Shown: piece after piece, positions 2,098 to 63,531 of the stretch
How the letters are laid out: each line of letters starts with the position of its first letter
Numbering within the stretch: position 1 is the first letter of the stretch
Source: a virus
Reading direction: 5' to 3' (one strand)
IMG/VR virus record: IMGVR_UViG_3300017963_000254
Coordinates: 10,516-74,515 of that record
DNA: 64,000 bases
Notes under the pieces: generated by a model
Databases searched by the model: none
What the model saw: the letters and a program-made list of their open reading frames with translations, nothing else
What the model was told of the DNA's origin: nothing
Translations under genes and position numbers: made by a program

Positions 2098-2366
2098 GTC
2101 TCGTTCGGGCGTCGTGCCAGTTCTGTCGCGGTCCGGTCTGGGCGGATGACCGGGGTACGATGGAGCTGCACAAGGACGCAAGGGGCGCGACATGTGAGGG
2201 GGCAGGCCGCCGGATTGACCGGAGCCTGATCCCCTCATGGCACCCGATGCACTCGTGCGGGATTCACTGCGACGGCCAGGACGGCATGTTCTCTCGCTGC
2301 AACCAGGCGAGGCTGCGAGGGCCACCGTCGGCTGTCGATCAACTCAGCAAGCTGGTGGATGAATGA
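2094..2366 (+). CDS. Hypothetical Cys/His-rich protein ending in the SAVDQL motif
   Basis: GTGA overlap; C-terminal PSAVDQLSKLVDE. Confidence 0.6.
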   Translation: MSLVRASCQFCRGPVWADDRGTMELHKDARGATCEGAGRRIDRSLIPSWHPMHSCGIHCDGQDGMFSRCNQARLRGPPSAVDQLSKLVDE

Positions 2367-2749
2367 GCAAGCTGCGTCGGCAACGAGCGTTCGAGGACGC
2401 CGAGATCCAGTCCAAGCTCCCCGAGGCCGACGCGCCTCAGTCGCGCGCGGTCAGCGCTGGCGATGTTTCTGGCGATCTGCTCACGACCGATGATGTCCAC
2501 CAGCCCTATTGGAACCTGGTGGACTACGGCTTCGACGAGCAGATCGGCCGGCGGTCTTACGACTCCTACCGATCCAGGCTCACCATGGTCTGGTCCGAGA
2601 TCGACCGCGTGCTTGCGCCGAACGGGAAGTTCTGCCTGAACGCGCCGATCATGCCGCTGCGGAAGGCGGTCTCGGCCGAGCACTTCGGCAAGACGCACAC
2701 GCGGCTGCTCGAAGAGCCATGCGGAGTGAGCCAACTGAGAGCGCGATGA
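2363..2749 (+). pseudogene. Degenerate DNA methyltransferase fragment
   Basis: 'PYWNLVDYG..QIG...VWSEIDRVLAPNGKFCLN' resembles the N4/N6 MTase segment after SPPY; the catalytic motif reads HQPY and the SAM-binding half is missing. Confidence 0.55.
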
Positions 2750-2975
2750 CCAGGGCGACACGGCCACCGGTTCTCGCTTATCTGTAGTAGTTGCAGTAGG
2801 TTGCTTCTCCAAGAGGTCTTGCGTAACCTCTTTAGATTCGTCCGACTTCGTACACAAGATGCCAGCGATGTGTGCTGTCAGCGAACAAGTGCGTCGTGGC
2901 ATTTTGTGAGCCCACTTGATTCCGCTTGGGAGTTGGCGTAGAACCTGAGCGGAACGGTCTCCGACTGGAGGCTGA

Positions 2976-3965
2976 ATGGGAGAGGCAGAGAAAAGAAAAG
3001 TCATCCTTCGAAGCAGGTCTAGGAGCCGGAAGATCGTAACCGAGATCATTACGATCGCGCCGTCGCAGGCCGCGCTGATTCTCGAACACCAGAACTATCT
3101 GAACAGGACGTTGGTCGAGGAGAGGGCAAAGACCCTCGCCAAGCTGATGACAGACGGCCTGTGGAAGATGAACGGTGACACGATTCGGTTTGCCATTGGG
3201 TCTGTGCGGCTGATGGACGGTCAGCATCGGCTGCGCGCTTGCGTGATCTCCGGGATCCCTCTCACGGTGATCGCGGTGTTCAACCTGCCCGATGACGCGA
3301 TGCCGACTATCGACACAGGTGGCGGCAGGACTGCCGCGCAAGCGCTGAACCTCGACCACAAGCAGCGGTTCGGCAAGGGATTCAAGAACGCCAACGTGAC
3401 CGCAGCGGTCGTTCGGCTCCTACACGCCTACGACGCTGACCCGCAGATGCCGGCCGTGAACAGGGGTAACTGGGGGAAGATGGCTCCGATTCGCGTAGTC
3501 GGCGCTGTCGACGACTATCCTCGCCTCGACGAGTCCGTCGCGATCGGCGTCGCTGGCGCAAAGGGGTTCTCTCGCACGGGCATGACGGCGACGGTCATGG
3601 GCTTCGCTCACTACGTGTTCGCGCGGATGAATCGGAAGAGGGCGGACGAGTTCATGGAGGGTCTGATAACAGGTGCGGAGCTGGCGATCGACGCGCCGGC
3701 CTTCGCGCTTCGCAAACGACTCAGCGGCAACACAAGCACCAACCGCCGGGATGGGCCGCTCGGGGCATTCGACGCGATCTACATGATCTTCCAGGCGTGG
3801 CGCTACTTCTGGAGCGGTGTTCCTCTCCAGAAGTCTCAGACGGCGAAGGCGACCAAGGACGGGTCCAGGCCGGCGCTGCCGGATCTCTCGAAGAAGGTCA
3901 CCGAAAAGGAGCGGACCCCTGTGGTCCGCTCCAAGAGGAAGGGTCGACAGAAGTCGACCGTTTAA
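2976..3965 (+). CDS. ParB/Srx-like domain protein
   Basis: NGDTI and LMDGQHRL motifs; GGAGG SD. Confidence 0.7.
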   Translation: MGEAEKRKVILRSRSRSRKIVTEIITIAPSQAALILEHQNYLNRTLVEERAKTLAKLMTDGLWKMNGDTIRFAIGSVRLMDGQHRLRACVISGIPLTVIAVFNLPDDAMPTIDTGGGRTAAQALNLDHKQRFGKGFKNANVTAAVVRLLHAYDADPQMPAVNRGNWGKMAPIRVVGAVDDYPRLDESVAIGVAGAKGFSRTGMTATVMGFAHYVFARMNRKRADEFMEGLITGAELAIDAPAFALRKRLSGNTSTNRRDGPLGAFDAIYMIFQAWRYFWSGVPLQKSQTAKATKDGSRPALPDLSKKVTEKERTPVVRSKRKGRQKSTV

Positions 3966-3983
3966 CCAGGAAACCGTTCCCAG

Positions 3984-4018
3984 AACCGCCGCCGCGATAC
4001 CGGCGGCGGTTTTGTTTT
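3984..4018 (+). terminator. Rho-independent terminator
   Basis: AACCGCCGCCG-CGATAC-CGGCGGCGGTT hairpin followed by a T-rich tract, just after the 3965 stop. Confidence 0.85.
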
Positions 4019-4096
4019 ATCAGAACGACGCTTTTCTGCCAATAGTCGGCGAATTTGCAAGATGCGCCGTCAGAGCGGTCGGGTAGAGTAGGGGTC

Positions 4097-4420
4097 ATGA
4101 CCGCCGACATCTGGCCGCCGCCCGGCTACTTCTGGTCCAAGAACCCGACCATCACGACGCGGGACAGGACCGACGTGCTCGTTCCGCTCGAGGCCGTAGC
4201 TCTCGGCGAGGTGATGCGCTACCAGCTGCCCGAGACGCCGGCCGAGCCGGGCTCTGTCTTCGTGGACGGCCATCTCTACTCGCTGGCGACCGGCGAGCTG
4301 CTCGACCAGGACGGGACGCTCGCCGGCTCGGTGGACTTCGATACGGGGATGATCGAGATCGACACCTCCGTGAGCCCCGGCCTCAGCTCGCGCCGCGCCC
4401 AGTATGTCGTCGCGGCTTGA
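4097..4420 (+). CDS. Hypothetical protein with a virion structural beta-domain-like segment
   Basis: 'PGSVFV...GTLAGSVDFDTGMIEI' pattern, similar to 56496-56951. Confidence 0.5.
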   Translation: MTADIWPPPGYFWSKNPTITTRDRTDVLVPLEAVALGEVMRYQLPETPAEPGSVFVDGHLYSLATGELLDQDGTLAGSVDFDTGMIEIDTSVSPGLSSRRAQYVVAA

Positions 4421-4631
4421 GGTGACCGGCGAGTTCGGCCAGGTCGATACGCCAAACGGTCCGATCTCCAAGCACTACGACGTCGCGATGGAGCCGCTCC
4501 GCGTCCTGCTCATGGAGCCGTCAGCGATCGATCGGCTCGCTGCGCTCGAGGATCCAGAGATCGCCGCGCGAGTGGAGCGGGCCGACCGCTTCCAGTCCTA
4601 CTACGGCGTGATAGACGTCACGGCGCTCTAG
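4404..4631 (+). CDS. Small hypothetical protein with SAIDRLA motif
   Basis: Fills the operon gap; EPSAIDRLAALED. Confidence 0.55.
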   Translation: MSSRLEVTGEFGQVDTPNGPISKHYDVAMEPLRVLLMEPSAIDRLAALEDPEIAARVERADRFQSYYGVIDVTAL

Positions 4632-4633
4632 CT

Positions 4634-4648
4634 GGGTAGAACGAGGGA
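4634..4648 (+). promoter_or_regulatory. GGGTAGAAC-N6-ATG putative leaderless promoter (one of many copies)
   Basis: TAGAAC at 4637-4642, 6 nt before ATG 4649; same spacing at starts 5321, 47122, 51660, 58648, 62043, 63088. Confidence 0.65.
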
Positions 4649-5311: not shown

Positions 5312-5320
5312 AACGTAGGC
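5306..5320 (+). promoter_or_regulatory. GGGTAGAAC-N6-ATG motif overlapping the upstream TAG stop
   Basis: TAGAAC at 5309-5314, then GTAGGC, then ATG 5321; no SD. Confidence 0.65.
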
Positions 5321-6787
5321 ATGAGTTCTGCGTCTACGGTCGCGATCATGCGCGGTGAGCTGGGCATCCACCTCAGCGAGCTGGACGACGATCAGCGAGA
5401 GTTACTCGAGCAACAGCTGACCCTGGTCTCGAGGCCCTGGGGCGACAACCCGCCCAAGACGGTCCGCTGCTACCAGGAGAAGGACGGCCGCCTCTGGATC
5501 CCGCGCCACTTCGAGCCGATGTCGATGTGGCAGCTCGTGGACAGCTGGGAGTGGAGCACCGGCCGCCATCATCAGTTCCAGGTCCAGGCGAAGCTCGACC
5601 CCGAGCGCGGTCAGGTCAGGGCTGTGCCGGCGATGATCGAGTACCTCAAGCGACACGGCGCCGGCGTCCTTCGTTCTGGCACAGGCACAGGCAAGACCGT
5701 GGTGGGGCTGATCATTGGCGCGGCCTTCGAGTGCTTCATCGGGATCCCGGTCTACAACGGGCACATGATGGACCACTGGACCGAGGACGCGATGAAGGTG
5801 CTCGGCCTGTCCGAGGACGACATCGGAATCGTGCAGAGCGACCGCTGCGATCTGGGCAAGCCGGTCACGATCATGATGGTCCAGAGCCTCCTCGCGCGCA
5901 GGTACCCGGACGAGCTGTACGAGCAGATCGGCTTCCTGATCGGCGATGAGACGCCGCACTTCGGCGCACCCGAGTGGAAGGCGACCGTGGGGATGTTCCC
6001 GGCGCGCTACCGCCTCGGCCTCACGGCCGATCCGAAACGGAAAGACGGCCTCGGCGCGTTGATCAACTGGACGTTCGGCGAGGTCGGCTACACCGCCAGG
6101 CGCGTCCGCACGAAGGACATCAAGCCGCCGACCGTGACGGCGATCTTCTGGAAGAAGACCTACCCATGGGGCTCCTACTGCAAGTGGGAGAAGGACTCGA
6201 CCGGTCAGTGGGCGATGGGCGACGAGGGGCACCCGTCCAAGTACGACAACGTGCTTGCCGCCGACGAAGATCGCACCAGGATGCTCGTGGCGGAGATCAA
6301 GAACGCGGCCGTCAAACAGCGGTCGATCTTGGTGTTCTCGGCGCGCGTCGAGCACTTGGTGGAGATGCGGGAGCTGCTGGCACGCCAGCTTGACCCGCCG
6401 ACGGCGATCGAGAGACTAGCGCAGCTCCGGGCACCGCCGCCGAACCTACCCGTGCTTGGTCACCTGAAGAGCGGCCTGAAGAAGAGTCAACGGGAGTGGG
6501 TGCTCAAGGCGGACATCATCTTCGCGACCTACGCGATGGCGCGGGACGCGTTCAACGCGCCCAAGCTCGACACCGAGTTCTTCGCCACGCCTCCGGGCGA
6601 TGTCGAGCAGCCCGCCGGCCGTCTCCGCGAGAAAGCCGAGGACCACGACCGCAAGCCGCTGATGATCGTGGAGGTCTACGAGGATACGCCCTACGGACGC
6701 GAGAAGTGGGTCAAGCGGCGCGACTGGTACAGGCAGCGAGGCTTCAAGGTCCAGGAGGTCACCCGGACTCCGAGGAGACGCAAGTGA
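5321..6787 (+). CDS. Superfamily 2 DExH helicase (UvsW/XPB-like)
   Basis: Walker A GTGTGKT, Walker B DETPH, motif III LTAD, motif VI QPAGR. Confidence 0.88.
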   Translation: MSSASTVAIMRGELGIHLSELDDDQRELLEQQLTLVSRPWGDNPPKTVRCYQEKDGRLWIPRHFEPMSMWQLVDSWEWSTGRHHQFQVQAKLDPERGQVRAVPAMIEYLKRHGAGVLRSGTGTGKTVVGLIIGAAFECFIGIPVYNGHMMDHWTEDAMKVLGLSEDDIGIVQSDRCDLGKPVTIMMVQSLLARRYPDELYEQIGFLIGDETPHFGAPEWKATVGMFPARYRLGLTADPKRKDGLGALINWTFGEVGYTARRVRTKDIKPPTVTAIFWKKTYPWGSYCKWEKDSTGQWAMGDEGHPSKYDNVLAADEDRTRMLVAEIKNAAVKQRSILVFSARVEHLVEMRELLARQLDPPTAIERLAQLRAPPPNLPVLGHLKSGLKKSQREWVLKADIIFATYAMARDAFNAPKLDTEFFATPPGDVEQPAGRLREKAEDHDRKPLMIVEVYEDTPYGREKWVKRRDWYRQRGFKVQEVTRTPRRRK

Positions 6788-13279: not shown

Positions 13280-14569
13280 GTGCTATCTGTCGCTTACCGG
13301 GCTCCCTGGCCGCCGGCCAGGGTCCCTTCTACCCACAAGCCGTGCTCCGAGTGCGGGCGCGTGTTGCCCCGCGCCACTCACTACCGTCTCCGCTACGCCG
13401 ACAACCCGTTCAACCTGCCCGACGGGGAAGAGGACGGCTCCGACGTGCCGGGCGATCGTGTGCTCTGCGTGCAGCCGCGCTGCATCGCGTGCGACAACCT
13501 GCGCCGGGAGCGCAGCCGCGCGGTGACGGAGCTGCGGCGGAAGCTCTCCAAGTACAAGTCGGCCGTCGTCAAGCACGACAGCCTCTACCACACGGTCGAG
13601 ATTCGCGGACGCGTGCCGCGCGCCATCCGGGAGATGCTGCTCGAGCCTGCGGCCCGTGCCGGCCTGATCGTCGTGGATGAGAAAGGAGAGCCGTTTCTGC
13701 CGAAGGATCCCGAGGCCGCGCTCCGCGTCTGCTACGCCGGCGTGCTTCCGATCTACATCAAGAAGGCCGGGTCGAGCCAGAAGATCCGGCCGTCGCGGAT
13801 CGGGCATTTCGGCCGCGAGCAGATCGCGTTGCTGAAGGCGATCCCGGGGCTCGTCAACAAGCTGCCGGACAAGCATCCGTTCGCCAAGCTCGCTCAGGAC
13901 GTGGTCGACGTCGCGCTCGTCCGGGAGTGGGGCGACCACTCCGAGGAGGCGATGGATGCGATCATCGGTCGTCTCCGCCGGAAGCTGTGGAAGTTCGCCA
14001 GGGCGATGGTCGACTCGAAGATGCTCCGCCCGGACGAGGCGGAGACGCGGTTCGTGGAGGGGATCTATGACGGCGTACGAACGTGGGATCCTCTCCACCC
14101 CTCGTGCGCCGCGCTACTGACGCACTGCGGGCACCGGGTGAAGAGGTCGCTCCAGCTGCGCGGCCGGAAGGACCATCGGATCGCTGCGCGGAAGGACTCC
14201 GATGGCCGGTTCCGTGGAGGGGCGGCCAGTCTCGATACCCTGATGCCGCCCAAGATCGCGGACGAAGGCGCGTTCGTTCCTCATGCCCGGAGTTACTCGA
14301 CTGGCGCAGGCGCGGTGCCGAGCGTTCAGTCCGACCGCCGCGAGGAGTCCCGCCGCCTGGCCATCCAGTCGGACGTGGCCGAGGCGCTCGAGGTGCTCGA
14401 TCCCGTCAGCCGGCGGATCGTCGAGGGCGTCTTCCTGTCCGATTTCTCGATCGGACGGATGTCGGAGGAGCTTGGTATGACCACTGGTGAGCTGCGCAGG
14501 CGGGTCTCCGAGATCAAGGAAACGCTCCAGGTCGCGCTTGCGTCTTACCAGGAGGCGATGTCCGTATGA
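13280..14569 (+). CDS. Sigma-factor-like protein with N-terminal Zn finger
   Basis: Region-2-like 'EGIYDGVRTWDP', 'SLD', region-4-like 'LEVLDPVSRRIV...SIGRMSEELGMTTGELRRR'; GAGGAGG SD. Confidence 0.65.
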   Translation: MLSVAYRAPWPPARVPSTHKPCSECGRVLPRATHYRLRYADNPFNLPDGEEDGSDVPGDRVLCVQPRCIACDNLRRERSRAVTELRRKLSKYKSAVVKHDSLYHTVEIRGRVPRAIREMLLEPAARAGLIVVDEKGEPFLPKDPEAALRVCYAGVLPIYIKKAGSSQKIRPSRIGHFGREQIALLKAIPGLVNKLPDKHPFAKLAQDVVDVALVREWGDHSEEAMDAIIGRLRRKLWKFARAMVDSKMLRPDEAETRFVEGIYDGVRTWDPLHPSCAALLTHCGHRVKRSLQLRGRKDHRIAARKDSDGRFRGGAASLDTLMPPKIADEGAFVPHARSYSTGAGAVPSVQSDRREESRRLAIQSDVAEALEVLDPVSRRIVEGVFLSDFSIGRMSEELGMTTGELRRRVSEIKETLQVALASYQEAMSV

Positions 14570-15036
14570 CGACCGACAACGGGAACCTGCAAGCGGCGCT
14601 GGACGCGCTCGGCGGCGCACATCAGCAGAAGAAGGAGGGCACCGGCCCCATCGAGCCCACGCTCGTCTCGAGCGGCAGCGCGGTCGAGGATCTGGGCAAG
14701 CTGGTCGAGCGGAACGCCGGCGTCCCGCAGGGCGTCCTGGCGATGGCCGCGCGCGCTGCGCAGGCGGCAGACGAGGCGCGCGAGGCTGACGCGAAGGCCA
14801 AGATGCTCAAGGCCGAGCTGACCGAGGCGATGAAGGCAGCTGAGGTCAAGAAGATCCACATGGAGGATCGACAGCCGATCGCGTTCAAGACGAAGAGCGA
14901 CCGGCAGACGACGCGCAAGGCGATCATCGGTGTGATCGGCGAGGAGGTCGGGACGAAGCTCTGGGCCAACCTGCCTACGCCGACCAAGGTCTACTTGGAC
15001 ATTCCCAAGAGGGAGGTCGACGACCCCGAACAGTGA
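14566..15036 (+). CDS. Hypothetical protein
   Basis: ATGA overlap; coiled-coil segment. Confidence 0.6.
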   Translation: MTTDNGNLQAALDALGGAHQQKKEGTGPIEPTLVSSGSAVEDLGKLVERNAGVPQGVLAMAARAAQAADEAREADAKAKMLKAELTEAMKAAEVKKIHMEDRQPIAFKTKSDRQTTRKAIIGVIGEEVGTKLWANLPTPTKVYLDIPKREVDDPEQ

Positions 15037-15040: not shown

Positions 15041-15397
15041 GTGAGCCAGTTCGTCGCCACCAAGCCGTTCTGCAAGCCGCCGCCCGGCGAGAATCCGAAG
15101 CTCATCATCCTCGATTCGGCCGGAACGAGCCCGGGGATGTACTGGAGCTACCGGGCCTGCCTGTTGGAGCGCGGCGACATGGTGGTCTGGCACTCCGTAG
15201 AGCACGGCGACCGTCTGGCCCGGGTGTCGAGACCTGATGGGACCGGCCCATGGGACCCTGTCCATATCCGGCTGCTGCGGCCTGTCGAGATCCCCAACGG
15301 TCGTGGCTCGGTCGATCGGCGATGGGGGTTCACGGCCGAGCAGGGCGATCTGTCTGAACCCAGTGCTGTAGATCTACTTGCGGACCTGGGCAGGTGA
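15041..15397 (+). CDS. Hypothetical protein ending in the SAVDLLA motif
   Basis: C-terminal PSAVDLLADLGR. Confidence 0.55.
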   Translation: MSQFVATKPFCKPPPGENPKLIILDSAGTSPGMYWSYRACLLERGDMVVWHSVEHGDRLARVSRPDGTGPWDPVHIRLLRPVEIPNGRGSVDRRWGFTAEQGDLSEPSAVDLLADLGR

Positions 15398-17205: not shown

Positions 17206-17870
17206 GCAACGGGACCGGCAACAACCCGAAGCGCTCTCTGGTGACACCGACGCAGGCGGCTGCGATCGGCCGGAACAAGCGTCGCTACCGGTCGCTGATC
17301 GATAAGAGGCGGCTCGCCGTATGGGAGGCTCGTCTCGCCGGCGTGCCGGTCTATCAGCTGGCCAAGGACCACGGCGTCTCCACGAAGACGATCGAGCGGG
17401 ACATCAGGTGGTGGGAGGATCGGCTCGGCTACCGAGCTGACGAGCTGAAGGATCCGAAGAACGCCGCGATCGATGTCGGCATGACGATGGCCAAGCTCCA
17501 GAAGGTGGCCGAGGATGCCTACGTCGAGTTCCTGGGGGCCGACAACGGTCACCTCAAGGCCAAGTTCCTGATGGTGATGAACAACGCGCTCGTCAACAGG
17601 CACAAGATCGGCGCCGACGCCGGGTTCTTGCCGAAGGTCGGTCAGGACCACGAGTGGCGAGAAGAGGTCAAGGTCACCTTCACTCAGCGGTTCGGCAAGG
17701 AGTCCCCGCAGGCCGTGTTCGATGACGACAAGAGCCGGCGCCGTGTTCTCGAGGCGACCGAGGCGATTCTCAAGGAGAGCGCCAGGTCGGGTGTTCCAGT
17801 CAAGGCCCTTCTCGAGCAGGCGTCGGCCAAGCCGGTGGAAGGCCAAGTTGTCGACACTGACGATGTGTAA
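17202..17870 (+). CDS. Probable terminase small subunit (HTH)
   Basis: HTH 'QLAKDHGVSTKTIERDI'; directly upstream of and coupled to the large terminase. Confidence 0.6.
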   Translation: MSNGTGNNPKRSLVTPTQAAAIGRNKRRYRSLIDKRRLAVWEARLAGVPVYQLAKDHGVSTKTIERDIRWWEDRLGYRADELKDPKNAAIDVGMTMAKLQKVAEDAYVEFLGADNGHLKAKFLMVMNNALVNRHKIGADAGFLPKVGQDHEWREEVKVTFTQRFGKESPQAVFDDDKSRRRVLEATEAILKESARSGVPVKALLEQASAKPVEGQVVDTDDV

Positions 17871-21349: not shown

Positions 21350-21600
21350 GATGCCCTCGCTGCACGCACCACGGCTCGAAGGTCACCAAGACTACGCGTC
21401 CAATCGACGAGGGCTCGTTCGAGTTCGGTAACCTGAAGAAGCGCGAGCGCAAGTGTGGTGAGTGCAACGGCCGGTTCTTCACCTACGAGATCCACGAGGA
21501 TGCGTTTCGTAGAATGCTCACCCTTACCGAGGGTAAACCTGTCCGCCGGTCGCTCCGAACGGGGGGCAAGAAGCCGAGCTATCGAGCGTCGCACCTGTAG
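21346..21600 (+). CDS. NrdR-like Zn-ribbon protein lacking the ATP-cone
   Basis: MRCPRC...SKV...RERKCGECNGRFFTYE matches the NrdR N-terminal domain. Confidence 0.75.
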   Translation: MRCPRCTHHGSKVTKTTRPIDEGSFEFGNLKKRERKCGECNGRFFTYEIHEDAFRRMLTLTEGKPVRRSLRTGGKKPSYRASHL

Positions 21601-21607
21601 GGACAGC

Positions 21608-37063: not shown

Positions 37064-37079
37064 CTCCGGGGAGGTCACC

Positions 37080-37589: not shown

Positions 37590-37981
37590 GCCTCTACGAC
37601 CGGGTTACCCTGGCCGAAGGCACGGCCGAGACGATCCTCAAGCAGCTCCGAAAGGCGCTTGGCTGGATCGACTACGGCGCGATGGGCATCAAGAACGTGT
37701 TCTCGTTCAAGGGTGACCAGAAGTTCCTGGGCGCCGAGGACACGACCGGACCGGGCGTCCAGTTCGACGTTCGCGGGCACTGGAAGGGCCGCGTCCTGAT
37801 TCGGCTCGACCCGAGCGACACCTACACGATCATCTTCGGCCGCACGCGGCGGAAGAAGGACAAGAAGCTCGGCATCTTCACGCCCTACTGGCACGTGGAC
37901 AAGAAGCTGAAAGGCGTCTACGTCTCCGAGCTGGGCAAGATCGTCAAGGACCACGTGCTAGGAACGGCGCTGAGGAAGTGA
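37586..37981 (+). CDS. Hypothetical phage protein with MSLYDRV leader
   Basis: MSLYDRVTLAE leader; GTGA coupling. Confidence 0.65.
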   Translation: MSLYDRVTLAEGTAETILKQLRKALGWIDYGAMGIKNVFSFKGDQKFLGAEDTTGPGVQFDVRGHWKGRVLIRLDPSDTYTIIFGRTRRKKDKKLGIFTPYWHVDKKLKGVYVSELGKIVKDHVLGTALRK

Positions 37982-49602: not shown

Positions 49603-50041
49603 CCAGACGATCCGAGACGCGCTGCGATGCCCAAAGTGCGGCCAGCGCGGCAAGATTCGGCCCTCCGCGTCCGGCGCACACGATCCGGGCGTCTCGATCC
49701 GGCTGGCCTGCGCCGACTGCGGGATGCTCGGCACGTTCGTGCCGCCCGACCCTGTCGCCTGGAGCATGATCCTGCCAGCTGATGCGGTCGAGAAGATCCA
49801 GGCGTTCCTCGACAACAGCGGCCTGCCCGAGAACGCGGTGGACCTCCTCGCGACGATGCGCCGGAAGGACGAGCGGGTCGAGGAGCTGGAGGCGGAGATC
49901 CGGCAGATCGCCCAGATGGTCCACCAGGCGTACCACGGCGGCCGGCCGCCCGACGACCTCTGCGACGTGACGTGGGACAAGTGCGCGCTCGGGATCTGCC
50001 GCCGCGCTCAACACGTCCTGGGGGTGAGCGACGATTCGTGA
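49574..50041 (+). CDS. Hypothetical Zn-ribbon protein
   Basis: CPKC...CADC; GGAGG SD. Confidence 0.55.
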   Translation: MRVSGATRANQTIRDALRCPKCGQRGKIRPSASGAHDPGVSIRLACADCGMLGTFVPPDPVAWSMILPADAVEKIQAFLDNSGLPENAVDLLATMRRKDERVEELEAEIRQIAQMVHQAYHGGRPPDDLCDVTWDKCALGICRRAQHVLGVSDDS

Positions 50042-50565
50042 TCATCACGGAGCTGGGGCCGTGGAACCTCAAGGACCACCTGGATGAGTCGATGGTCGCG
50101 GTCGGGGTGCTCGAGAACATCCGGTGCCCGGAGTGCGATCGACAGGCGCGAGTCGGCTGGAAGCGAGTGGGCGTCTCCTCGACCGAGTTCTACTGCGTGG
50201 ACTGCGGCTACCTCGCGACGTTCGCTGGCACCTTCGAGCTGGAGACGGTCATCCCGTCAGGCATCTGCATGGCCGACCATGTTGGAGGACTGTCGTTGAT
50301 AGCGCAGACGAGGCTCACCGAGGCGCGGATCGGTCAGTCGGCCGTGGACAAGCTGGCGAAGATCGCCTACGACGATCTGGTCGGGAAGCTCAAGCCGCTC
50401 ATCGTGCGGCAGGACGAGCTGGAGAAGGCGCTCGAGGAGCTGGCGCAGTTCCGGCACCAGCGGCACGTCGTGCAGACGCACATCGACGGCTGGCGCGATT
50501 GCTGGAAGCCGGAGTGCAAGCGGATGCAGAATCTCTTTGCGGCGAGGGTGGAGATCGATGAGTGA
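50038..50565 (+). CDS. Hypothetical Zn-ribbon protein with SAVDKLA motif
   Basis: CPEC...CVDC; QSAVDKLAKI. Confidence 0.55.
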   Translation: MIITELGPWNLKDHLDESMVAVGVLENIRCPECDRQARVGWKRVGVSSTEFYCVDCGYLATFAGTFELETVIPSGICMADHVGGLSLIAQTRLTEARIGQSAVDKLAKIAYDDLVGKLKPLIVRQDELEKALEELAQFRHQRHVVQTHIDGWRDCWKPECKRMQNLFAARVEIDE

Positions 50566-50926
50566 CGACCCGCTTCAGATCAGCGTGAGCTACCCGATGG
50601 ACGGTCTGCCGAACAAGAACGGCCGGGTCTATCCCCCCGAGCTGTTCAAGGAGGCGATGGAGAAGGCCGTGCGCGAGGGCAAACTCAAGGTCGAGATCGG
50701 TGGCCAGTGCGAGCCGTGGCTGAAGAACAAGCCGATCTCCCTCGGCGGCAAGCGCTTCGTCAATCCCAAGATGCAGATCGAGAGCATGGACCTGGGACCG
50801 GACGGGCTACAGGCCGTGGTCCGCGTCGAGGAGCAGGCGGGAGCGGTGGATCAGCTGGCGTCGCTCGCCGACGAGGACGAGTCGAAGTCCAGCTCGGTTT
50901 CCGAGGGCGACGGCCAGACGCGCTGA
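50558..50926 (+). CDS. Small protein resembling the N-terminal part of T4 gp21-type prohead protease
   Basis: 'PNKNGRVYPPELFKEAMEK'; AVDQLASL near the C-terminus. Confidence 0.5.
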   Translation: MSDDPLQISVSYPMDGLPNKNGRVYPPELFKEAMEKAVREGKLKVEIGGQCEPWLKNKPISLGGKRFVNPKMQIESMDLGPDGLQAVVRVEEQAGAVDQLASLADEDESKSSSVSEGDGQTR

Positions 50927-51660
50927 AACCCGTAGCCGCGCTCGGACACCACGAGGATGTAGATGCGGCCGTTGATCCGCGCTCGGTAGAGCGCTTCCCC
51001 GTTCTCGTGGAAGCGTCCGTCGTAGCCGGGCGCCTGGCATCCGGCGACCTTCAGAGCGGTCTCCAAGACCTCATCCAGCATCTCGAGCCGGCGGGATAGC
51101 GCGTCTCGGTAGTCCCGAGCAGCGTCGAACTCGTCTCCCAGCGCGATCTCCTCTGGCCGCGCGATGGCGGTCAGCCGGTCGATCGCGCTCGTCAGGCCCT
51201 TCCGATCGCCCCACTCCTCGAGCGTGTATGTCTCGCTGTTGCCCCGATCGTCCCACTCTGTGAACTGCCGCTCGTGGCTCGACCAGTGTCGGTGGTAGAT
51301 GCGGCCGAGCGCTTTCGATCGCTCCCAGACGTCTTCCCAGACCGGAAGCGCGACCTCGTAGAGCCGCCGGGCGATGCGCCATCGAAGCGCCTCGATCCGC
51401 CGGACATCGTTGAGCTTGTCGCGGCGAACGAGCCAGGCAGCGCGGTAGCCTGACTTCCCGATCTCGGCGTACCAGCGGCCGATCACGCGCTTGCGCCGGT
51501 AGACGCTCCCGTCGTCGGCTAGCTGGGTGCGGTGGCCGTAGTCCTCGATCGGCAACATCCCGTGGACGCTTCCGTCGTCCCGGATGATGCCGACGTACGG
51601 GTAGATGGAGCGCTTGTAGTCCTGTAGCTCGCGGTTCGTTCGGAGTGCGGTGGCTGTCAC
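50851..51660 (-). CDS. Hypothetical protein with SAIDRL motif
   Basis: TAGAAC-N6-GTG start; TSAIDRLTAI. Confidence 0.65.
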   Translation of the reverse strand: MTATALRTNRELQDYKRSIYPYVGIIRDDGSVHGMLPIEDYGHRTQLADDGSVYRRKRVIGRWYAEIGKSGYRAAWLVRRDKLNDVRRIEALRWRIARRLYEVALPVWEDVWERSKALGRIYHRHWSSHERQFTEWDDRGNSETYTLEEWGDRKGLTSAIDRLTAIARPEEIALGDEFDAARDYRDALSRRLEMLDEVLETALKVAGCQAPGYDGRFHENGEALYRARINGRIYILVVSERGYGFQRVWPSPSETELDFDSSSSASDAS

Positions 51661-56062: not shown

Positions 56063-56499
56063 TCGACCTCGTGATTCTGCTCGCCGACACGGCTGCGGAG
56101 GCCACAGCTGATCCAGCCATTCCCTCCTGGGGCAAGTACGTTCTCGGCCCGCTCGGCTGTCTGGTGCTGCTCCTGATCTACGCCGTCTACACGGAGAGGT
56201 ACCGGATACCAAAATTCGAGGGCCTGTTGACATCGAAGGAGACGTCGCTGAAAGAGGTGCGCACCGAGCTGGAGACGCTGCGCGACAAGAACTCGCTCAG
56301 GCAGGAGGAGATCCGCAAGGAAGCCGAGGCGCGGGAGGATGAGCTGGAGGCCGAGGTTCGCCGGCTGAAGGACAAGATCGCCAAGGAGAAGTCGGCTCGA
56401 GCATGGTGGCAGGCGAAGGCGACCGGGGCCTTCAAGCGGCTCAAGGAAGACGTCAGTATCCCCGAAGACATCGACAAGACGCACTACGGCGGCGACTAG
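56059..56499 (+). CDS. Membrane protein with coiled coil (holin-like?)
   Basis: TM segment VLGPLGCLVLLLIYAV followed by coiled coil. Confidence 0.55.
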   Translation: MIDLVILLADTAAEATADPAIPSWGKYVLGPLGCLVLLLIYAVYTERYRIPKFEGLLTSKETSLKEVRTELETLRDKNSLRQEEIRKEAEAREDELEAEVRRLKDKIAKEKSARAWWQAKATGAFKRLKEDVSIPEDIDKTHYGGD

Positions 56500-56951
56500 T
56501 AGAGGTTGTTGAGCGCCTCTCGCAGCTCTCGCAGGGTAACCCAGCGCTTCTTGCCACCCAGCTTGACCCGCATCTTCGCCTTGTAGAGCCTGTGGAGCCG
56601 GCGCTTGTAGGTGAGTACGATGTCGGCGCCATCGGCCGGCGCGTGCTCCCAGATGATCTGCACGTAGCCGGTCGTGTAGTTGACCGTGCCGGTGCAGTTG
56701 CCGTGCATGACGCCATCCTCGCCGATGTCGCAGCAGGCCATCTCCGGCTTGATGTGGCCAGTCAACGCTCCCAGACGACTGACAGCGTCGGGCGGCATGA
56801 CTCGGATTCGTACTGAGCCAGGGACGATCGGTCCACGGATGCCGCCTGAGAAGGTCGTCGTCGCCCCGTCGCCCTCGCCAAACGGCAGGCGGATGTCCTC
56901 GGCCTTCGGATAGTCGCCCCACTCGCCGTCGCCCCAGTCACTACCGCTCAT
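56496..56951 (-). CDS. Protein with tail-sheath/virion beta-domain-like segment
   Basis: 'FGEGDGATTTFSG...PIVPGSV...GTVNYTTG...APADGADI..TY'. Confidence 0.55.
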   Translation of the reverse strand: MSGSDWGDGEWGDYPKAEDIRLPFGEGDGATTTFSGGIRGPIVPGSVRIRVMPPDAVSRLGALTGHIKPEMACCDIGEDGVMHGNCTGTVNYTTGYVQIIWEHAPADGADIVLTYKRRLHRLYKAKMRVKLGGKKRWVTLRELREALNNLY

Positions 56952-57228
56952 CGGATAGCTTCCCGAGCGCGGTGATCGCGCACGGCGCGACCGGCTCCCA
57001 GTTGCGCGACAGGAACCACTCCAGCAGCTCCGGCTTGTTCGTCTCCAGCCAGCGGTCGCTGTACTGTGGGCTGTCTGGCGTGCAGAGCGTAAGCCACGGT
57101 TCCCCACCTGGAACGGTCGGCCGGTGTTCCTTCGCCTGTGCCTCGTAGTCGAGGGGGTGCCGCTTCGCGTCCTTGTAGGACAGCGCAGACCCGGCGCGCG
57201 AGAGACGTAGCGCCTCGCGCAGGGTCAC
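56941..57228 (-). CDS. Hypothetical protein
   Basis: GTGA coupling; C-terminal AITALGKL. Confidence 0.5.
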   Translation of the reverse strand: MTLREALRLSRAGSALSYKDAKRHPLDYEAQAKEHRPTVPGGEPWLTLCTPDSPQYSDRWLETNKPELLEWFLSRNWEPVAPCAITALGKLSDER

Positions 57229-57587
57229 GGTTTCACCTGGCACTCGCAGCCCTTCTCGATGAGGATCCGACGCTGCTCCTCGAGCGTGTTGACGAGACCA
57301 GGAGGTTCCGGCGGCGATTCCAGCAGGTCTGCCAGTTGGTCGATAGCCGATCGTTCGAAGAAGATCGGCGACTTGTGATTCCATCCGCGCTGATCCATCT
57401 CCTCTACCTGCTCTCGATGTCGATCCGCTAGATGCTGGAGATGCCCCTCCCAGCGCTTGACCTCCGGGTGATGCCGGTATCCCTGCCTATCCTCGGTCAG
57501 GATCGTCCAGATCGCGTGCAGCTCGCGGTGCTCTCCGAGGAGGTGCTTGCGGCAGAGGACGCGAACCGGCAGGTCCCAGATCCTCAC
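57225..57587 (-). CDS. Pyrimidine-dimer DNA glycosylase (DenV/endonuclease V-like)
   Basis: MRIW....LCRKHLLGEHRELH...EM..RG.NHKSP. Confidence 0.78.
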   Translation of the reverse strand: MRIWDLPVRVLCRKHLLGEHRELHAIWTILTEDRQGYRHHPEVKRWEGHLQHLADRHREQVEEMDQRGWNHKSPIFFERSAIDQLADLLESPPEPPGLVNTLEEQRRILIEKGCECQVKP

Positions 57588-58135
57588 TCGACTTCCTCGA
57601 CTTCCTCATCGACGAGAGTGGCGAGGTGGTCGACGGCCGATGGGAACGCGTCCGGCTGGATGTCGGCGAGTACGCGAGACGGCATCCGTCCCTCGGCAGC
57701 GGCGATCATGAGAAGTGCGTCGAGGAGCTTCTTGTCCGCATCCCATCCGCTGATGTCAACCTCTACGCGTGTCTTTCGGTGCGTGTAGTAGCCGGTGTAG
57801 TTGCCCTTGAACCATTCAGGTTCGCGCTCGCCCTCGGCCTCCCGGCCGCTGCATGGACATCGGTCGTCGAGGTAGCGGGTGAACGCTTCCGGCGTGAGTG
57901 CGTGGGCATATGGAAGGACAGGCGCGAGGAACAGTCTGGTGATCTTCTCCAGCCGGTCGATGCGGTTAAGGAGCTGACCGACCTCTTCGATGAACGCACT
58001 TCCTGATGAGCCTGTGATGAGTACGTCGATCGGCGTCTTGTCGTCGATCGCAACGCGGATCACGGCGCCGCGTTCATCGAACGTGAAGAAGCTCGGACGA
58101 AGCTCTGGTGCTGGAGCGTCGGCCATGTCTGGCAC
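57584..58135 (-). CDS. Hypothetical protein ending in the SAVDHLA motif
   Basis: PSAVDHLATLVDE. Confidence 0.6.
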   Translation of the reverse strand: MPDMADAPAPELRPSFFTFDERGAVIRVAIDDKTPIDVLITGSSGSAFIEEVGQLLNRIDRLEKITRLFLAPVLPYAHALTPEAFTRYLDDRCPCSGREAEGEREPEWFKGNYTGYYTHRKTRVEVDISGWDADKKLLDALLMIAAAEGRMPSRVLADIQPDAFPSAVDHLATLVDEEVEEVE

Positions 58136-58437
58136 TATCGTCTCCTCTTCTTGCCGCGCTTCGCCTGCCGCTCCTTCCGCGCCTCGAGCCGCTCGGCGCG
58201 CTGCGCCCGGAGCGTCGTGTTGTGCAGGAAGCGGTCGACGCCACCCTCATCGATCTCGACGCCATCGAGTTGGCCCAGCATGGTCCGAATCAGGGCCGCC
58301 GGATCGTCAGGGTCAACCGGCCCGGCGGGTAAGGAGCTGGCAACCTCGATCTTGGGAGCCGGCTCCTTCGCTTTCTTCTTGGGTGGCAACTTGTCGTCGG
58401 CCGGCGGCGGGCTGGAGAAGAACTCGGCCTCCTTCAT
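58135..58437 (-). CDS. Hypothetical protein
   Basis: AAGGAG SD before ATG 58437. Confidence 0.5.
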   Translation of the reverse strand: MKEAEFFSSPPPADDKLPPKKKAKEPAPKIEVASSLPAGPVDPDDPAALIRTMLGQLDGVEIDEGGVDRFLHNTTLRAQRAERLEARKERQAKRGKKRRR

Positions 58438-58648
58438 GGGTACTCCTTCCGATGTCGGCCAGCTGATCCACGGCCGATTTCGGCCTGACATTGCCGATCC
58501 AGCACTTGAGCACCTTGGGCTCACCGATGGCCGCATCGTGCAGGCGGAATACGACCTCCTGCGTGAGCGGCCACACGCGGATCACCTTGCCGAAGCGGCC
58601 GGCGAATCGGCCGGCGTTGATGATGCGGATCTCGTCTCCTGGGTCCAT
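58313..58648 (-). CDS. KOW/SH3-like small protein with SAVDQLA motif
   Basis: 'PGDEIRIINAGRFAGRFGKV'; TAGAAC-N6-ATG. Confidence 0.55.
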   Translation of the reverse strand: MDPGDEIRIINAGRFAGRFGKVIRVWPLTQEVVFRLHDAAIGEPKVLKCWIGNVRPKSAVDQLADIGRSTHEGGRVLLQPAAGRRQVATQEESEGAGSQDRGCQLLTRRAG

Positions 58649-58657
58649 ACCCTAGTT

Positions 58658-58864
58658 CTACCCCGCCTTCTGTCCGAGGTGCGCCAAGCAATCCACGGCC
58701 GAGGCGTCCCACGGGATCCCGTCCACGCAGAGGGTCATCCCGTCTTCTCCCTCGTGGGCGATCCTGGCGTTCAACTCGCCCAGCTCCTTCCGCTCGGCCG
58801 GCGTCAGCCGATCCGGCAGGCAGAGCTGCCAGTGGCGATGGATGACCTCGTCGCGGGCTACCAT
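58658..58864 (-). CDS. Small protein ending in the SAVDCLA motif
   Basis: ATG 58864; ASAVDCLAHLG. Confidence 0.5.
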   Translation of the reverse strand: MVARDEVIHRHWQLCLPDRLTPAERKELGELNARIAHEGEDGMTLCVDGIPWDASAVDCLAHLGQKAG

Positions 58865-59645: not shown

Positions 59646-59652
59646 GGGCCTC

Positions 59653-60425: not shown

Positions 60426-61144
60426 TCTTCCTCCTCGGCTAGTAGCCCGAGCCTGGTGACCGCGTCGGCGCACAGCTCGTGGATGACCCTGAGCCGGCCG
60501 CGCTTGATGCTGGCTTCCTTGAGCGCCTCCGAGGCCGCTCGCTTCGACCTGAAGGTCTCCGGCAGCTTGTCCTTGTAGCCATCCTCACCGTAGAGTTTGG
60601 CGCTCCACCCTCCCTGGACACTGGTGACCAGGCCGAGCCGCACGCTGGTGCCGCCGTGCTTCCTGCCGATCCACACCTGTCGGCCTTCGCGCCTGTAGGA
60701 GAACGGCTGCTCCAGCAGTTTGCGCCAGCCGTCGTTGTTCATGTCGATCGCGAGTGACGAGACCCAGTATGGGACGCCGCGCAGCCACTTCCAGGTGGCG
60801 ACCGAAGCGGGCCGCGACAGCCAGAACTCGATGTCGCCAAACTGCCGCCAGAACCGTGCCTCGGTGCGGGTGACGGTCTCGTTGCCGTCCTTGTCTTTGA
60901 TGATGCGCCGGCCGCGCATGGTCGGGTTCCTGGACGACCACCTTCCCCATCGGCCGTCAACCTGCCTACGGTAGAACGAGATCCTGCACTCGGCGCTCCA
61001 CTCGTCGTTGATCGGGTAGTGCAGCAGAGCCGTGAACTCCTGACGAGTGCCGCTCTCGCTCGCGCCGCCGTACGAGGGTGTCCACCCGCTGCTACTGGCA
61101 AGCTCGATCATGCGCTTGGCGCGGGCCGGAAGACTGATGGTCAC
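60410..61144 (-). CDS. Hypothetical protein
   Basis: GTGA coupling; C-terminal DAVTRLGLLA. Confidence 0.55.
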   Translation of the reverse strand: MTISLPARAKRMIELASSSGWTPSYGGASESGTRQEFTALLHYPINDEWSAECRISFYRRQVDGRWGRWSSRNPTMRGRRIIKDKDGNETVTRTEARFWRQFGDIEFWLSRPASVATWKWLRGVPYWVSSLAIDMNNDGWRKLLEQPFSYRREGRQVWIGRKHGGTSVRLGLVTSVQGGWSAKLYGEDGYKDKLPETFRSKRAASEALKEASIKRGRLRVIHELCADAVTRLGLLAEEEECPAQ

Positions 61145-61485
61145 GCAGCATCCTCCTCGTCGTCGAGCAGCGAACCCATCCTGGTGATCACGTCGATCTC
61201 CCGGGTGTAGCCCTTGTCGCGCTTCTCGTTCTTCATTCTCCGGGCGTAGCTGATGGCGCTGCTCTTCCCGCGTCGGACCTCGGGCTTGATCCTGCCCTTC
61301 GCTCCGTACTTGCCCCACCGTCGGACGACCTCGAACTTGCCGTCTCCGCACCTGAGCACGGCGACCTCCCAGAACTTGTCGGACTGGCCGCTCACGTTCT
61401 CGGCGTTGGGGCCGAGGTACTCGAGGTAGCGGTGGTAGATCGGCTCTGGACGACCATCGTAGGGGCTGATGTCGGTGAGCTTCAC
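61141..61485 (-). CDS. WGR-domain protein
   Basis: SDKFWEV...VVRRWGKYGAKG...EKRDKGY. Confidence 0.78.
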   Translation of the reverse strand: MKLTDISPYDGRPEPIYHRYLEYLGPNAENVSGQSDKFWEVAVLRCGDGKFEVVRRWGKYGAKGRIKPEVRRGKSSAISYARRMKNEKRDKGYTREIDVITRMGSLLDDEEDAA

Positions 61486-61673
61486 GACTGCTCCTCTCCG
61501 GTCCACAGCGGCCGGCCGTCGCGGTCCACCTGGTTGTGCGGGCGCCGGGCACGGGCCTGACCCTGCCAGACCTGGTTGCCTGACTGCTTGCGCACGCCAG
61601 CCCAGACTCGACTCGAGTAGCGCCGGATCTGGCGGCGGGTGCGTCCGTGCTGCGGCTTGCCCTTGATGCTCAT
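61482..61673 (-). CDS. Small basic hypothetical protein
   Basis: ATGA coupling. Confidence 0.45.
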   Translation of the reverse strand: MSIKGKPQHGRTRRQIRRYSSRVWAGVRKQSGNQVWQGQARARRPHNQVDRDGRPLWTGEEQS

Positions 61674-61933
61674 GCCTCGACCTCGTCCTTCCGCCTCCGG
61701 CCGGCCTCGGTCAGCCGGTAGCCCCACGCGCTCCCGATCCGCTTGCCCTGGTGCATACGGCCCTCGCACCACCGGACCTCGGCCAGACAGCGCCGCACGA
61801 GCGCGCGGGCGCTGCGGCCGTCGGCGTCGCAGTCGAAGTAGAGGTGCGAGAGCGCTCGCAGGGCTCGTCGCTGGGCGCTGTTCAGCTCGGCGCAGGTGGC
61901 GACCCCCTCGACGGTATCGATCGTGTAGCTCAT
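61670..61933 (-). CDS. Small winged-helix-like protein
   Basis: 'RSARALVRRCLAE...YRLTEAGR'; GAGGAG SD. Confidence 0.55.
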   Translation of the reverse strand: MSYTIDTVEGVATCAELNSAQRRALRALSHLYFDCDADGRSARALVRRCLAEVRWCEGRMHQGKRIGSAWGYRLTEAGRRRKDEVEA

Positions 61934-62043
61934 TGCGTCTCCTCTCTGCCCCTCTCAACAACCTCGCTTTCCGTTCTCACACGGTTTCCGTAGTCGGTCA
62001 CTACTAAAGGACTTATGTGGCGGATGGGGTGCCGGAACTCCAT
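61930..62043 (-). CDS. 37-aa leaderless micro-ORF (not in the ORF track)
   Basis: TAGAAC-N6-ATG; MEFRHPIRHISPLVVTDYGNRVRTESEVVERGREETQ; ATGA overlap with the next gene. Confidence 0.45.
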   Translation of the reverse strand: MEFRHPIRHISPLVVTDYGNRVRTESEVVERGREETQ

Positions 62044-62052
62044 ACCCTGGTT

Positions 62053-62574
62053 CTACCCAGGATCGGCCAGCTCCCCGAGGTGTTCGACGGCGCTCAGCAG
62101 GTCGATCTCGCCGGGCTGCTCGCGGCCATCCGAGAGGCGGTCGGCCGTGTTGTTCCAGCGCGTGAAGTCGGAGTTGTCGCGCTGATGCTCCGACGACAGA
62201 ATCGCATCGCGGCCCGGACCCAGGCGTCGTCGAGCGCGCGCTGTCTTGCCCTTCTCGGACTGCTCGTATCGCTGCTGCGCAGCGCGCCTCGTCTCTGGGT
62301 TGTTCGCCGCCCACTCGCGTTTGGCTGCGTTGAGCTGCTCCGCGTTCGTCTCACGGTAAGCTGCCGCAGCCGCTTTGCCCTTGTCCGACTGATCGTATCG
62401 ACGGCAGTGCTCGCGTCTCTTCTCTCGGTTCTGCCGTTGCCATTCGGCGCTCTTGGCCTTGATGCACTCCACGCACGGTCGTTGGAGTTTGCCGTTTCGC
62501 CGCGTGTAGTGCTTCCCGATTTTCCCGCAGGTATTACAGCGCTTGCGGACCTTCGGTCGGGCGGCCTGTGGCAT
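62053..62574 (-). pseudogene. Homing-endonuclease-like N-terminal remnant fused to a former RNase H C-terminus
   Basis: CNTC...CVEC plus 'REW..NP' repeats, no nuclease motif; tail HQRDNSDFTRWNNTADRLS mirrors the RNase H end. Confidence 0.55.
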
Positions 62575-63088
62575 TCAACTGCTCCTCCAGATGAAACTCT
62601 GTCTGGAGCGATGCTAGGCGGTCCGCTTCGTGGTTCCAATAGGAAAAATCGGATTCGTCTGGATCTTGGTGTCCCGCGTGGTGGACGAACGAGAGGAGCA
62701 GGTCGCGGTCCTCGGCGATGGCCATCGCGTGTTCGATCTTGCCGCGCACCAGCTGATCCTTGATCTTCCAGTTGCCAGTCATCCAGGCGGCGATCCCCAG
62801 GTAGTCGGAGACGACGATGACCTCGCTGCCGCGCGGCGCGTGCTCGAGGCCGAGCAAGAGTCCGTCCAGCTCGGCGCCGACGTTCCTCGTGCTGGTGGGC
62901 TCGCTGAAGCCGGCGTACTTCTTCGCGCAGGCGCGGGTGACGACCACGGCCCCGAAGCCTCCCTTCGAGCTGCCATCGGTGAAGACGTAGACCTTGTTGG
63001 CCAGGCAGCGGCGGTCCTCCAGCAGGGAGACCCACTTCGCTTGATGGGGGACGCGGACGGTACCGGGGTTCGTGGAGTAGACGCTCAT
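62534..63088 (-). CDS. Ribonuclease HI-like protein
   Basis: VFTDGSS, N..AELDG, VSDY and HQ...WNHEADRLA catalytic pattern. Confidence 0.82.
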   Translation of the reverse strand: MSVYSTNPGTVRVPHQAKWVSLLEDRRCLANKVYVFTDGSSKGGFGAVVVTRACAKKYAGFSEPTSTRNVGAELDGLLLGLEHAPRGSEVIVVSDYLGIAAWMTGNWKIKDQLVRGKIEHAMAIAEDRDLLLSFVHHAGHQDPDESDFSYWNHEADRLASLQTEFHLEEQLNATGRPTEGPQAL

Positions 63089-63117
63089 GGAGCTGTTCTA
63101 CCCCAGGTCGGCGACAT

Positions 63118-63531
63118 CTAGGGTTGTCGGGGCTGCCCGGGGTCGCCTATGTCGGCGAGCAGCCCCACCAGAGCCGCCTCGGGGTCAAGATCCTCGAGCG
63201 CGGCGGCATCTCCCCGAGATGCAAACAAGCCCGACCAGTTTCCCGATCGGGCTGCATCTAGGATCCGAACGGCCTTCGGGTCCGGGCTCGGACCTCGCGT
63301 CGCCTTCACGAGCGCGACGACCCTGGAGAACGCCCAGGGATGGCGCGCCAGCTGGCGCTCGATCACGATGCGCTCGTGGCTACTGACTACGCCAGCGGCA
63401 TAGCGACAGAGCCCGTACACATCGACGCCCGACTCCAGGGCGAAGTCGGGCGTCGTTCTCGCGAGGTTGGCCTCGGTCAGCAGATCAGCGAACAACGTCT
63501 GGCCGGGGCGCTTGGGATTGACGGGGGGCAT
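63118..63531 (-). CDS. Hypothetical protein
   Basis: GAGGA SD; upstream GGGTAGAC. Confidence 0.55.
   Translation of the reverse strand: MPPVNPKRPGQTLFADLLTEANLARTTPDFALESGVDVYGLCRYAAGVVSSHERIVIERQLARHPWAFSRVVALVKATRGPSPDPKAVRILDAARSGNWSGLFASRGDAAALEDLDPEAALVGLLADIGDPGQPRQP

Follow-up and report, generated by a model that had tools for sequence, protein, structure and literature searches.

A portable mini-helix tag recurs on unrelated proteins of a T4-like jumbo phage clade and may be a docking label

A short peptide tag recurs on unrelated proteins encoded by a 64,000-nucleotide stretch of viral DNA (IMG/VR virus record IMGVR_UViG_3300017963_000254, positions 10516-74515; the whole stretch is called the window) and by related phage genomes. 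It is a real feature under strong selection, found on about a fifth of the window's proteins and on 30-44% of the called genes of two relatives, G001 and G003. The odds lie slightly in favour of the tag being a docking or address label that is read by one common partner. The tag would be a short linear motif that is portable: an amphipathic mini-helix of 9-10 residues with an N-capping pair, which in this clade was added to the C-terminus of small accessory proteins on repeated occasions and was also inserted into surface loops of some DNA enzymes. One reader would then handle many phage proteins as a group, by recruiting them to a single place or machine, by remodelling them, or by removing them at a set time. 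The sequence-only reading of this DNA had described the tag as genome-wide; the motif is in fact larger in scale than first noted, and it is a property of the clade rather than of one genome.

The window belongs to a 74.5-kb viral contig (G000) with an estimated completeness of 27% and a guanine plus cytosine (GC) content of 63-67%. A search with its helicase led to a complete relative, G001 (275,101 bp with terminal repeats; helicase identity 85%), which carries genes for a Gp23-type major capsid protein, a Gp20-type portal and an S77 prohead protease. Because G001 encodes these T4-type head genes, the window phage is taken to be an uncultured high-GC T4-like jumbo phage. The other relatives are G003, a fragment of 120 kb that shares 81% identity with G001 in the capsid protein, while its terminase matches those of G001 and the window at only about 26-31% identity; G004, also a fragment (capsid 80% identical); and G006 (capsid 69% identical, GC 58%, 89% complete). 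A DNA search with the contig matched no cultured relative. By terminase, the closest cultured phages were Rhodobacter and Vibrio siphophages at no more than 31% identity, and the von Willebrand factor A (vWA) domain of the CobT-like protein is about 30% identical to those of SSU5-like, nickie-like and Rhizobium phages.

Seventeen instances of the tag had been listed in the window. A six-frame scan with the loose pattern [STGDC][AV][VI][DESTN]x[LM][AGST]x[LI] recovers exactly these, at the positions given and all in coding frame and orientation, plus an 18th in the DNA polymerase gene immediately upstream of the window. On the 74.5-kb contig the 18 loose matches compare with 0.42 in residue shuffles (maximum 3), and 13 matches to the strict form, [ST]A[VI][DE]xL[AGST]x[LI], compare with 0.03 in shuffles and a mean of 0.02 when the columns of the motif are permuted. 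Reversed contig proteins give 1-2 motif matches. The motif is thus far more frequent than in composition shuffles. Other high-GC sequences show neither its clustering nor its placement near the C-terminus: 25 other high-GC viral loci have at most one match each, none near a stop, and among 120 high-GC bacterial loci picked by a match to the tag's DNA pattern the peptide is in frame in 28, with no tag within 8 residues of a stop and no locus with three or more matches. Bacterial genomes scanned with the DNA pattern gave single chance matches alone and no clue to the host, and a viral pattern scan with the D/T variant gave 0 matches. When a profile built from 39 tagged tails was compared with 1.84 billion representative proteins, 19 matches were obtained at E <= 0.001. 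Seventeen of these were inspected, the two longest (452 and 944 residues) being left out; all 17 are small proteins (46-147 residues), and several share upstream sequence with G001 members of the profile. No bacterial family was found in this search, although with so short a profile absence elsewhere is weak evidence.

The instances in the window are as follows. Scores, where quoted, come from a position-specific profile whose threshold was set at 0.5 expected false matches per proteome; ORF denotes open reading frame.

2328-2354, plus strand: SAVDQLSKL, 3 residues ahead of the stop of a small ORF (about 2160/2094-2366); profile score 23.9.
4521-4547, plus strand: SAIDRLAAL, in a 75-residue ORF (4404-4631); belongs to a sub-family with the extension EDPEIAARV.
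6401-6427, plus strand: TAIERLAQL, in a Pro-flanked loop of a ResIII/SF2 helicase (5321-6787).
14677-14703, plus strand: SAVEDLGKL, near the N-terminus of a 156-residue ORF (14566-15036) with a weak RecE-like match in PHROGs.
15362-15388, plus strand: SAVDLLADL, 2 residues ahead of the stop of ORF 15041-15397; profile score 29.9.
26627-26653, plus strand: DAVTQLGGV, a weak and doubtful match, internal in a 2137-residue protein; score 10.5 against a threshold of 8.0.
50338-50364, plus strand: SAVDKLAKI, internal in ORF 49972-50565; identical in the G001 orthologue.
50840-50866, plus strand: GAVDQLASL, tag-like, followed by an acidic tail, in ORF 50537-50926, whose status as a gene is uncertain.
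51163-51189, minus strand: SAIDRLTAI, internal in a 269-residue ORF (50851-51660).
56763-56789, minus strand: DAVSRLGAL, a D/S variant after a Pro-Pro linker in a beta-rich 151-residue protein (about 56496-56951), of which relatives with the same layout were found; score 26.2.
56956-56982, minus strand: CAITALGKL, a weak instance 4 residues ahead of the stop, conserved in G001; score 16.3.
57324-57350, minus strand: SAIDQLADL, an insert in a DenV-type pyrimidine-dimer glycosylase (57225-57587); modelled as helix at residues 79-88.
57614-57640, minus strand: SAVDHLATL, followed by 9 acidic residues and the stop, in ORF 57584-58135.
58451-58477, minus strand: SAVDQLADI, with 45 codons after it, in ORF 58313-58648, which has a KOW-like N-terminus.
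58676-58702, minus strand: SAVDCLAHL, 5 residues ahead of the stop.
60440-60466, minus strand: DAVTRLGLL, a D/T variant 9 residues from the stop, including the acidic run AEEEE.
61168-61194, minus strand: DVITRMGSL, directly behind a WGR domain (61141-61506) and before an acidic tail; identical in G001.
62068-62094, minus strand: SAVEHLGEL, 4 residues ahead of the stop of ORF 62053-62574; score 26.4.

The 21-39 kb region had been described as a tag-free virion block. It is indeed free of tags bar the weak profile match DAVTQLGGV, but the label does not hold, as the T4-type virion module lies elsewhere. The protein with that match (21455-27868) has no Pfam match, is conserved in G001 and was not detected in G006. 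The 75-residue protein at 4404-4631 is a member of a small paralogous family in which an internal tag is followed by a second conserved stretch (LAAL-EDPEIAARV). Further sites are at 25.1-26.9 kb and 46.4 kb in G001 and at 55.6-56.4 kb and 83.6 kb in G003, where there are tandem copies. A homologue search with the 75-residue protein recovered a close orthologue alone. This family could be an older, longer form of the tag module.

In G001, the loose pattern gives 92 six-frame matches, 86 of which lie in 85 of the 423 called genes. With the profile, carriers rise to 125 of 423 genes in G001 and 121 of 274 in G003, where a lower count of 73 of 274 was also obtained. The tags of G001 concentrate at 90-180 kb, in small-gene arrays, and the T4-type structural block at 180-260 kb is nearly without them. 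In the same arrays another C-terminal module recurs, the SecA-type SEC-C zinc knuckle (GRNxPCxCGSGKKxKRCCGR), which ends four G001 proteins of 167-218 residues (120667-131945) and one more protein in G004 (22974-23234). The tag had been said to sit usually at the C-terminus. This placement is strong in the relatives, where 78 of 125 tags in G001 and 95 of 121 in G003 have their end at most 10 residues from the C-terminus (15-17 expected if uniform), and moderate in the window, where 8 of 17 lie within 9 residues of the stop and the rest are internal.

The form of the tag differs between lineages. In G004 it is mostly [SD]V[VI][ED]xLAEL plus one residue, while in G006 it is [VI]LDxLAx[IV], ending exactly at the stop. 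A pattern for the latter variant ([VI]L[DE]x[LM][AGS]x[ILV]) has 22 matches in G006 against 1.7 expected, and 14 of them have a stop no more than 2 residues away, where shuffles give 0.06. Co-evolution with one reader predicts such a change of the tag across the whole proteome from one lineage to another.

In extended form the consensus reads h(-4)-x-[PE]-x-[SD]1-A2-[VI]3-[DE/TS]4-x-L6-[GA]7-x-[LI]9-[AV]10, followed by 1-5 more residues. The tag usually stands on a Pro- or charge-rich linker, and the few residues after it are often acidic; in the window, G001 and G003 there are 1-13 variable residues behind the helix, unless it is internal. The residues at positions 1 and 4 are linked: of 134 tags with S1, 128 have D/E4, and of 63 with D1, 54 have T/S4, which is seen solely together with D1. 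An S/T/D N-cap with E/D/S/T three residues on, at the start of a helix, makes an N-capping box, and the S1/D4 and D1/T4 pattern is its reciprocal alpha-helical form. This coupling implies exactly one carboxylate at the helix start, and an acid is present at position 1 or 4 in 235 of 246 tags. Hydrophobic residues 2, 3, 6, 9 and 10 share one face, and position 7 is small. The contact surface would be A2, V/I3, L6, L/I9 and A/V10, with the small residue 7 and one acidic group at 1/4. The amphipathic helix that had been proposed agrees with an AlphaFold2 model of the window's DenV, in which residues 79-88 are predicted to be helical, starting one residue before the Ser of the tag, between the conserved core and the last helices and at a confidence below that of the core.

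The same coupling is predicted by an intramolecular N-capping box in an autonomous structural cap without a common partner. Such a cap would lend stability to small proteins that evolve fast, or shield C-termini against tail-specific or ClpXP-type proteolysis by the host. In line with this, most carriers are small orphans of 80-120 residues, and about half of the proteins in that size range are tagged (by profile). The cap is an unlikely explanation. It would be generic and would not need six conserved positions across distant lineages, nor would it enter loops of enzymes that are already stable (polymerase, helicase, DenV), and the proteome-wide change of variant per lineage is fitted better by co-evolution with a single reader.

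The carriers are unrelated to each other, as had been claimed: with the tag masked, the 85 carriers of G001 fall into 82 BLAST clusters. Paralogous carriers are few, comprising two small clusters and the EDPEIAARV sub-family. Carriers of known fold are a family A DNA polymerase, the ResIII helicase, DenV, a WGR-domain protein and the weak RecE-like match, while most carriers had no match in Pfam or PHROGs. In 27 orthologue pairs between G003 and G001, identity is 72% in the tag against 37% in the protein body, so the peptide is under purifying selection.

A remote alternative is that the tag is an element of the DNA or RNA (a mobile insert, recombination site, operator or ribosome-binding signal) or marks one diverged paralogous family. 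The tags do lie near gene ends, where the regulatory signals of the next gene sit, and the few paralogous carriers would suit the second version. However, pairwise nucleotide identity between tags is 0.66 at codon positions 1 and 2 and falls to 0.40 at position 3, where the flank background is 0.39; in the 45-nt flanks identity is 0.29-0.32, and 0 of 3655 pairs reach 70%. The probability that two tags sharing a residue also share its codon is 0.43, against 0.419 expected from genome codon usage. The odd codon choices, GAT at Asp4 and CTG at Leu9, are explained by genome-wide avoidance of GTCGAC and complete absence of GAGCTC. The synonymous variation pointed out earlier therefore does reflect a constraint on the peptide. 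With third positions, flanks and codon use at background, a DNA repeat, mobile insert or RNA signal is ruled out, and the paralogous version conflicts with the 82 clusters and with the presence of the tag in unrelated known folds; on these comparisons, both readings look largely refuted. In-frame mobile DNA elements, such as the Rickettsia palindromic elements, were rejected as silent sites and flanks lack conservation at the DNA level. A Shine-Dalgarno explanation of G7-[DE]8 was also rejected, as the enrichment of GGA is slight and position 7 holds Ala just as often.

Six-base palindromes are missing from the window more widely (observed/expected: AGGCCT 0/20, CCGCGG 0/37, CTGCAG 0/11, GAGCTC 0/41, GCATGC 0/9, GGGCCC 0/12). 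The absent set differs per phage among G001, G003, G004 and G006, which suggests evasion of host restriction enzymes.

In recognisable folds the tag is a lineage-specific insertion. This had been suspected for the helicase and DenV, and alignment with homologues bears it out for both and likewise for the polymerase. The DNA polymerase has a 22-residue insert in its exonuclease domain in G000 and G001 that is absent from the G006 orthologue. The insert of about 9 residues in the window's DenV is absent from 20 homologues, including the 71%-identical orthologue of G001. The Pro-flanked helicase loop has TAIERLAQL in G000 and G001, and NVLDALVYA with a disordered Ser/Pro/Asp stretch in G006, where NVLDALVYA is the G006 form of the tag. 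Among tag-bearing orthologue pairs of G003 and G001, 9 of 34 are tagged on one side only.

All carriers of known function act on DNA (polymerase, helicase, DenV, WGR, RecE-like), and G001 encodes a three-domain DnaN-like clamp, as would be expected if the tag bound a phage DnaN-type sliding clamp. Clamp-binding motifs (QL[SD]LF, the PIP box, gp45-binding tails of T4) resemble it in occupying termini and loops of many unrelated DNA enzymes in the presence of a phage-encoded clamp. They differ in consensus, spacing and conformation. The tag does not have the clamp-motif consensus (Q-L-[SD]-L-F, or QLxLxL with a leading Gln and a C-terminal aromatic/Leu pair); its logo has no Gln or aromatic column, and its spacing of 3, 6 and 9 on a capped helix is unlike QL[SD]LF. 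Moreover, the 89%-complete G006 yielded no clamp gene, and most carriers, which amount to up to 44% of genes, are small orphans. Clamp binding is therefore very improbable.

A signal for targeting or packaging into the capsid, which would load proteins into a T4-type head for injection, has similarly little chance of being right. T4-type head genes, among them that of the S77 prohead protease, are present in the clade, and terminal amphipathic peptides on linkers are the mode in which HK97-fold shells load cargo. However, the carriers lie in small-gene arrays of early type and include replication enzymes, the structural block is almost without tags, and the Glu at position 8 that T4-type L/I-x-E cleavage needs occurs in no more than about a quarter to a third of the tags. 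The T4 capsid-targeting sequence, like the acidic C-terminal tails of T7 gp2.5 and gp4, is a precedent for a short shared peptide that addresses several phage proteins to one partner, but these precedents concern a handful of proteins, other positions (N-terminal in T4) and other sequences. Encapsulation peptides of microcompartments and cargo peptides of encapsulins are also short, amphipathic, terminal, portable, borne on flexible linkers and bound by one receptor surface. They have another sequence pattern, whereas the phage tag is partly an internal loop insert and occupies a far larger share of the proteome. No BMC-H/T or encapsulin shell genes were among the general Pfam matches, in which no search was aimed at shell proteins.

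C-terminal degrons (ssrA/LAA read by ClpX, and signals for tail-specific proteases) are likewise partly non-polar labels at the C-terminus of unrelated proteins, and the G006 variant resembles them further in ending exactly at the C-terminus. In contrast, the tag of the window, G001 and G003 is internal or followed by 1-13 residues. An ssrA-type signal lies at the extreme C-terminus with a free carboxylate, and 0 of 17 tags in the window end at the stop. No ClpP, classic AAA protease, Clp or Lon genes were found in these phage genomes; the search for classic AAA proteins returned only an IstB-like loader (G001) and one unrelated ORF (G006).

For the docking label proposed here, the leading phage-encoded candidate for a reader is a MoxR-vWA-zincin pair resembling CobS and CobT, and a host protein is about equally likely. 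The pair consists of a CobS-like MoxR AAA+ ATPase (AAA_5 + CbbQ_C) and a CobT-like protein (CobT + CobT_C) and is encoded in G000, immediately upstream of the window, in G001 and in G006 (52% and 40% identity). The metagenomes that gave G003 and G004 also contain contigs with homologues, and the pair is the sole AAA+ remodelling machine found in both G001 and G006. Among 67 homologues of the CobT-like protein, the HExxH zincin motif and the DxSxS motif of the adhesion site dependent on a metal ion (MIDAS) are invariant (D337, S339, S341, D466). G001 also encodes a second MoxR beside a DUF2201 zincin/vWA protein and a Ro60/TROVE-vWA protein, in addition to the DnaN-like clamp; its three vWA proteins and two MoxR ATPases lie at 1960-4367, 17340-19016 and 36405-38950. 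A Pfam scan of 109 further untagged G001 proteins found no obvious peptide-binding module. A 373-residue protein from the tag-rich region (69% identical between G001 and G003) was rejected as reader, being absent from the records of five other relatives. A tag-like S-x-VLDLIGVP in CobT is the end of the vWA alpha-1 helix, is conserved across CobT relatives and was set aside as a coincidence.

In structures of CobST, CbbQO and NorQD, a finger of the vWA partner passes into the pore of the ATPase, and the MIDAS is thought to hold the client; the CobST structures leave the MIDAS available to a client (bioRxiv 10.64898/2026.10.09.757910). Pairs of MoxR and zincin-vWA proteins have been described in T4-like jumbo phages, with a proposed role in virion assembly (Iyer et al. 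2021, PMC7824862). In the phage machine, the MIDAS would capture the acid of the tag (in G006, the terminal carboxylate), MoxR would remodel the client and HExxH may cut it, so that accessory proteins would be handled or removed at a set time. The candidate agrees with known client capture (CbbQ-CbbO with Rubisco, NorQ-NorD, CobS-CobT) in that a MoxR ATPase and a vWA partner with intact MIDAS (DxSxS...T...D) are encoded together, and in that the MIDAS binds a client carboxylate while the tag keeps one obligatory acid. The lack of ClpP and of a classic AAA protease also speaks for it. It differs in that the known systems have one dedicated client and no described shared peptide, while the phage tag is on a third of the proteome. 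An acid at position 1 or 4 would suit binding to the MIDAS, yet the intramolecular capping box accounts for it just as well. The link is one of co-occurrence only, with no informative absence, and CobT relatives are widespread in phages whose CobT neighbourhoods lack the motif. A cobalamin-related role for CobS/CobT would also be in keeping with the B12-dependent class II ribonucleotide reductase of the window. When a 39-residue tagged tail (39-row alignment) was modelled in complex with the CobT-like protein (alignment of 67 rows) plus Mg and Zn, without controls, the prediction scored zero; it speaks neither for nor against binding. That the CobS/CobT-like machine is the reader is thus a speculative proposal with a low chance of being correct.

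Several points weigh against a docking label with one common reader. The docking function is deduced from the anatomy of the tag. Internal tags (17 of the 86 pattern-matched tags in G001 and 9 of 17 in the window) mean that a free C-terminus is not required, which makes a single recognition mode less obvious. In the literature searched, a reader handling 30-44% of a proteome has no phage precedent; the earlier statement that no such phage system has been described stands as well, as no published description of such a tag was found there. The gene counts for G001 and G003 are crude and approximate, having been obtained with a gene caller made for this analysis and based on codons and GC at third codon positions (GC3). 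As for the candidate reader, CobS/CobT-like pairs are common in phages without this motif, so their presence is not specific evidence.

Besides the genes already named, the window holds genes for a RecA-like protein, a methylase, the large terminase and RNase H, along with many orphans. The class II ribonucleotide reductase (40560-45491), a terminase-adjacent ORF (17870-19393) and the DNA polymerase upstream of the window are split by inteins that carry LAGLIDADG or HNH endonucleases; in G001 there are additional inteins in the prohead protease and a deoxynucleoside kinase. Further genes of G001 encode an ADP-ribosylglycohydrolase, a WGR protein and a 1750-residue UvrD-like helicase with a 2'-5' RNA ligase domain.

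Small orphans make up most of the uncharacterised content of phage genomes, and a label common to a third of them would mean that they are handled together. The tag peptide would give one experimental handle on where its carriers go and what binds them, and would be a ready-made portable peptide for targeting proteins during infection. In its fullest form, which we consider unlikely, the proposal is one of proteome-wide addressing, with a capped mini-helix on up to about 40% of proteins being read by a CobS/CobT-like machine that gathers, remodels or removes the carriers as a group. If this were true, a very common phage gene pair annotated as 'cobalt chelatase' would gain a protein-handling function.

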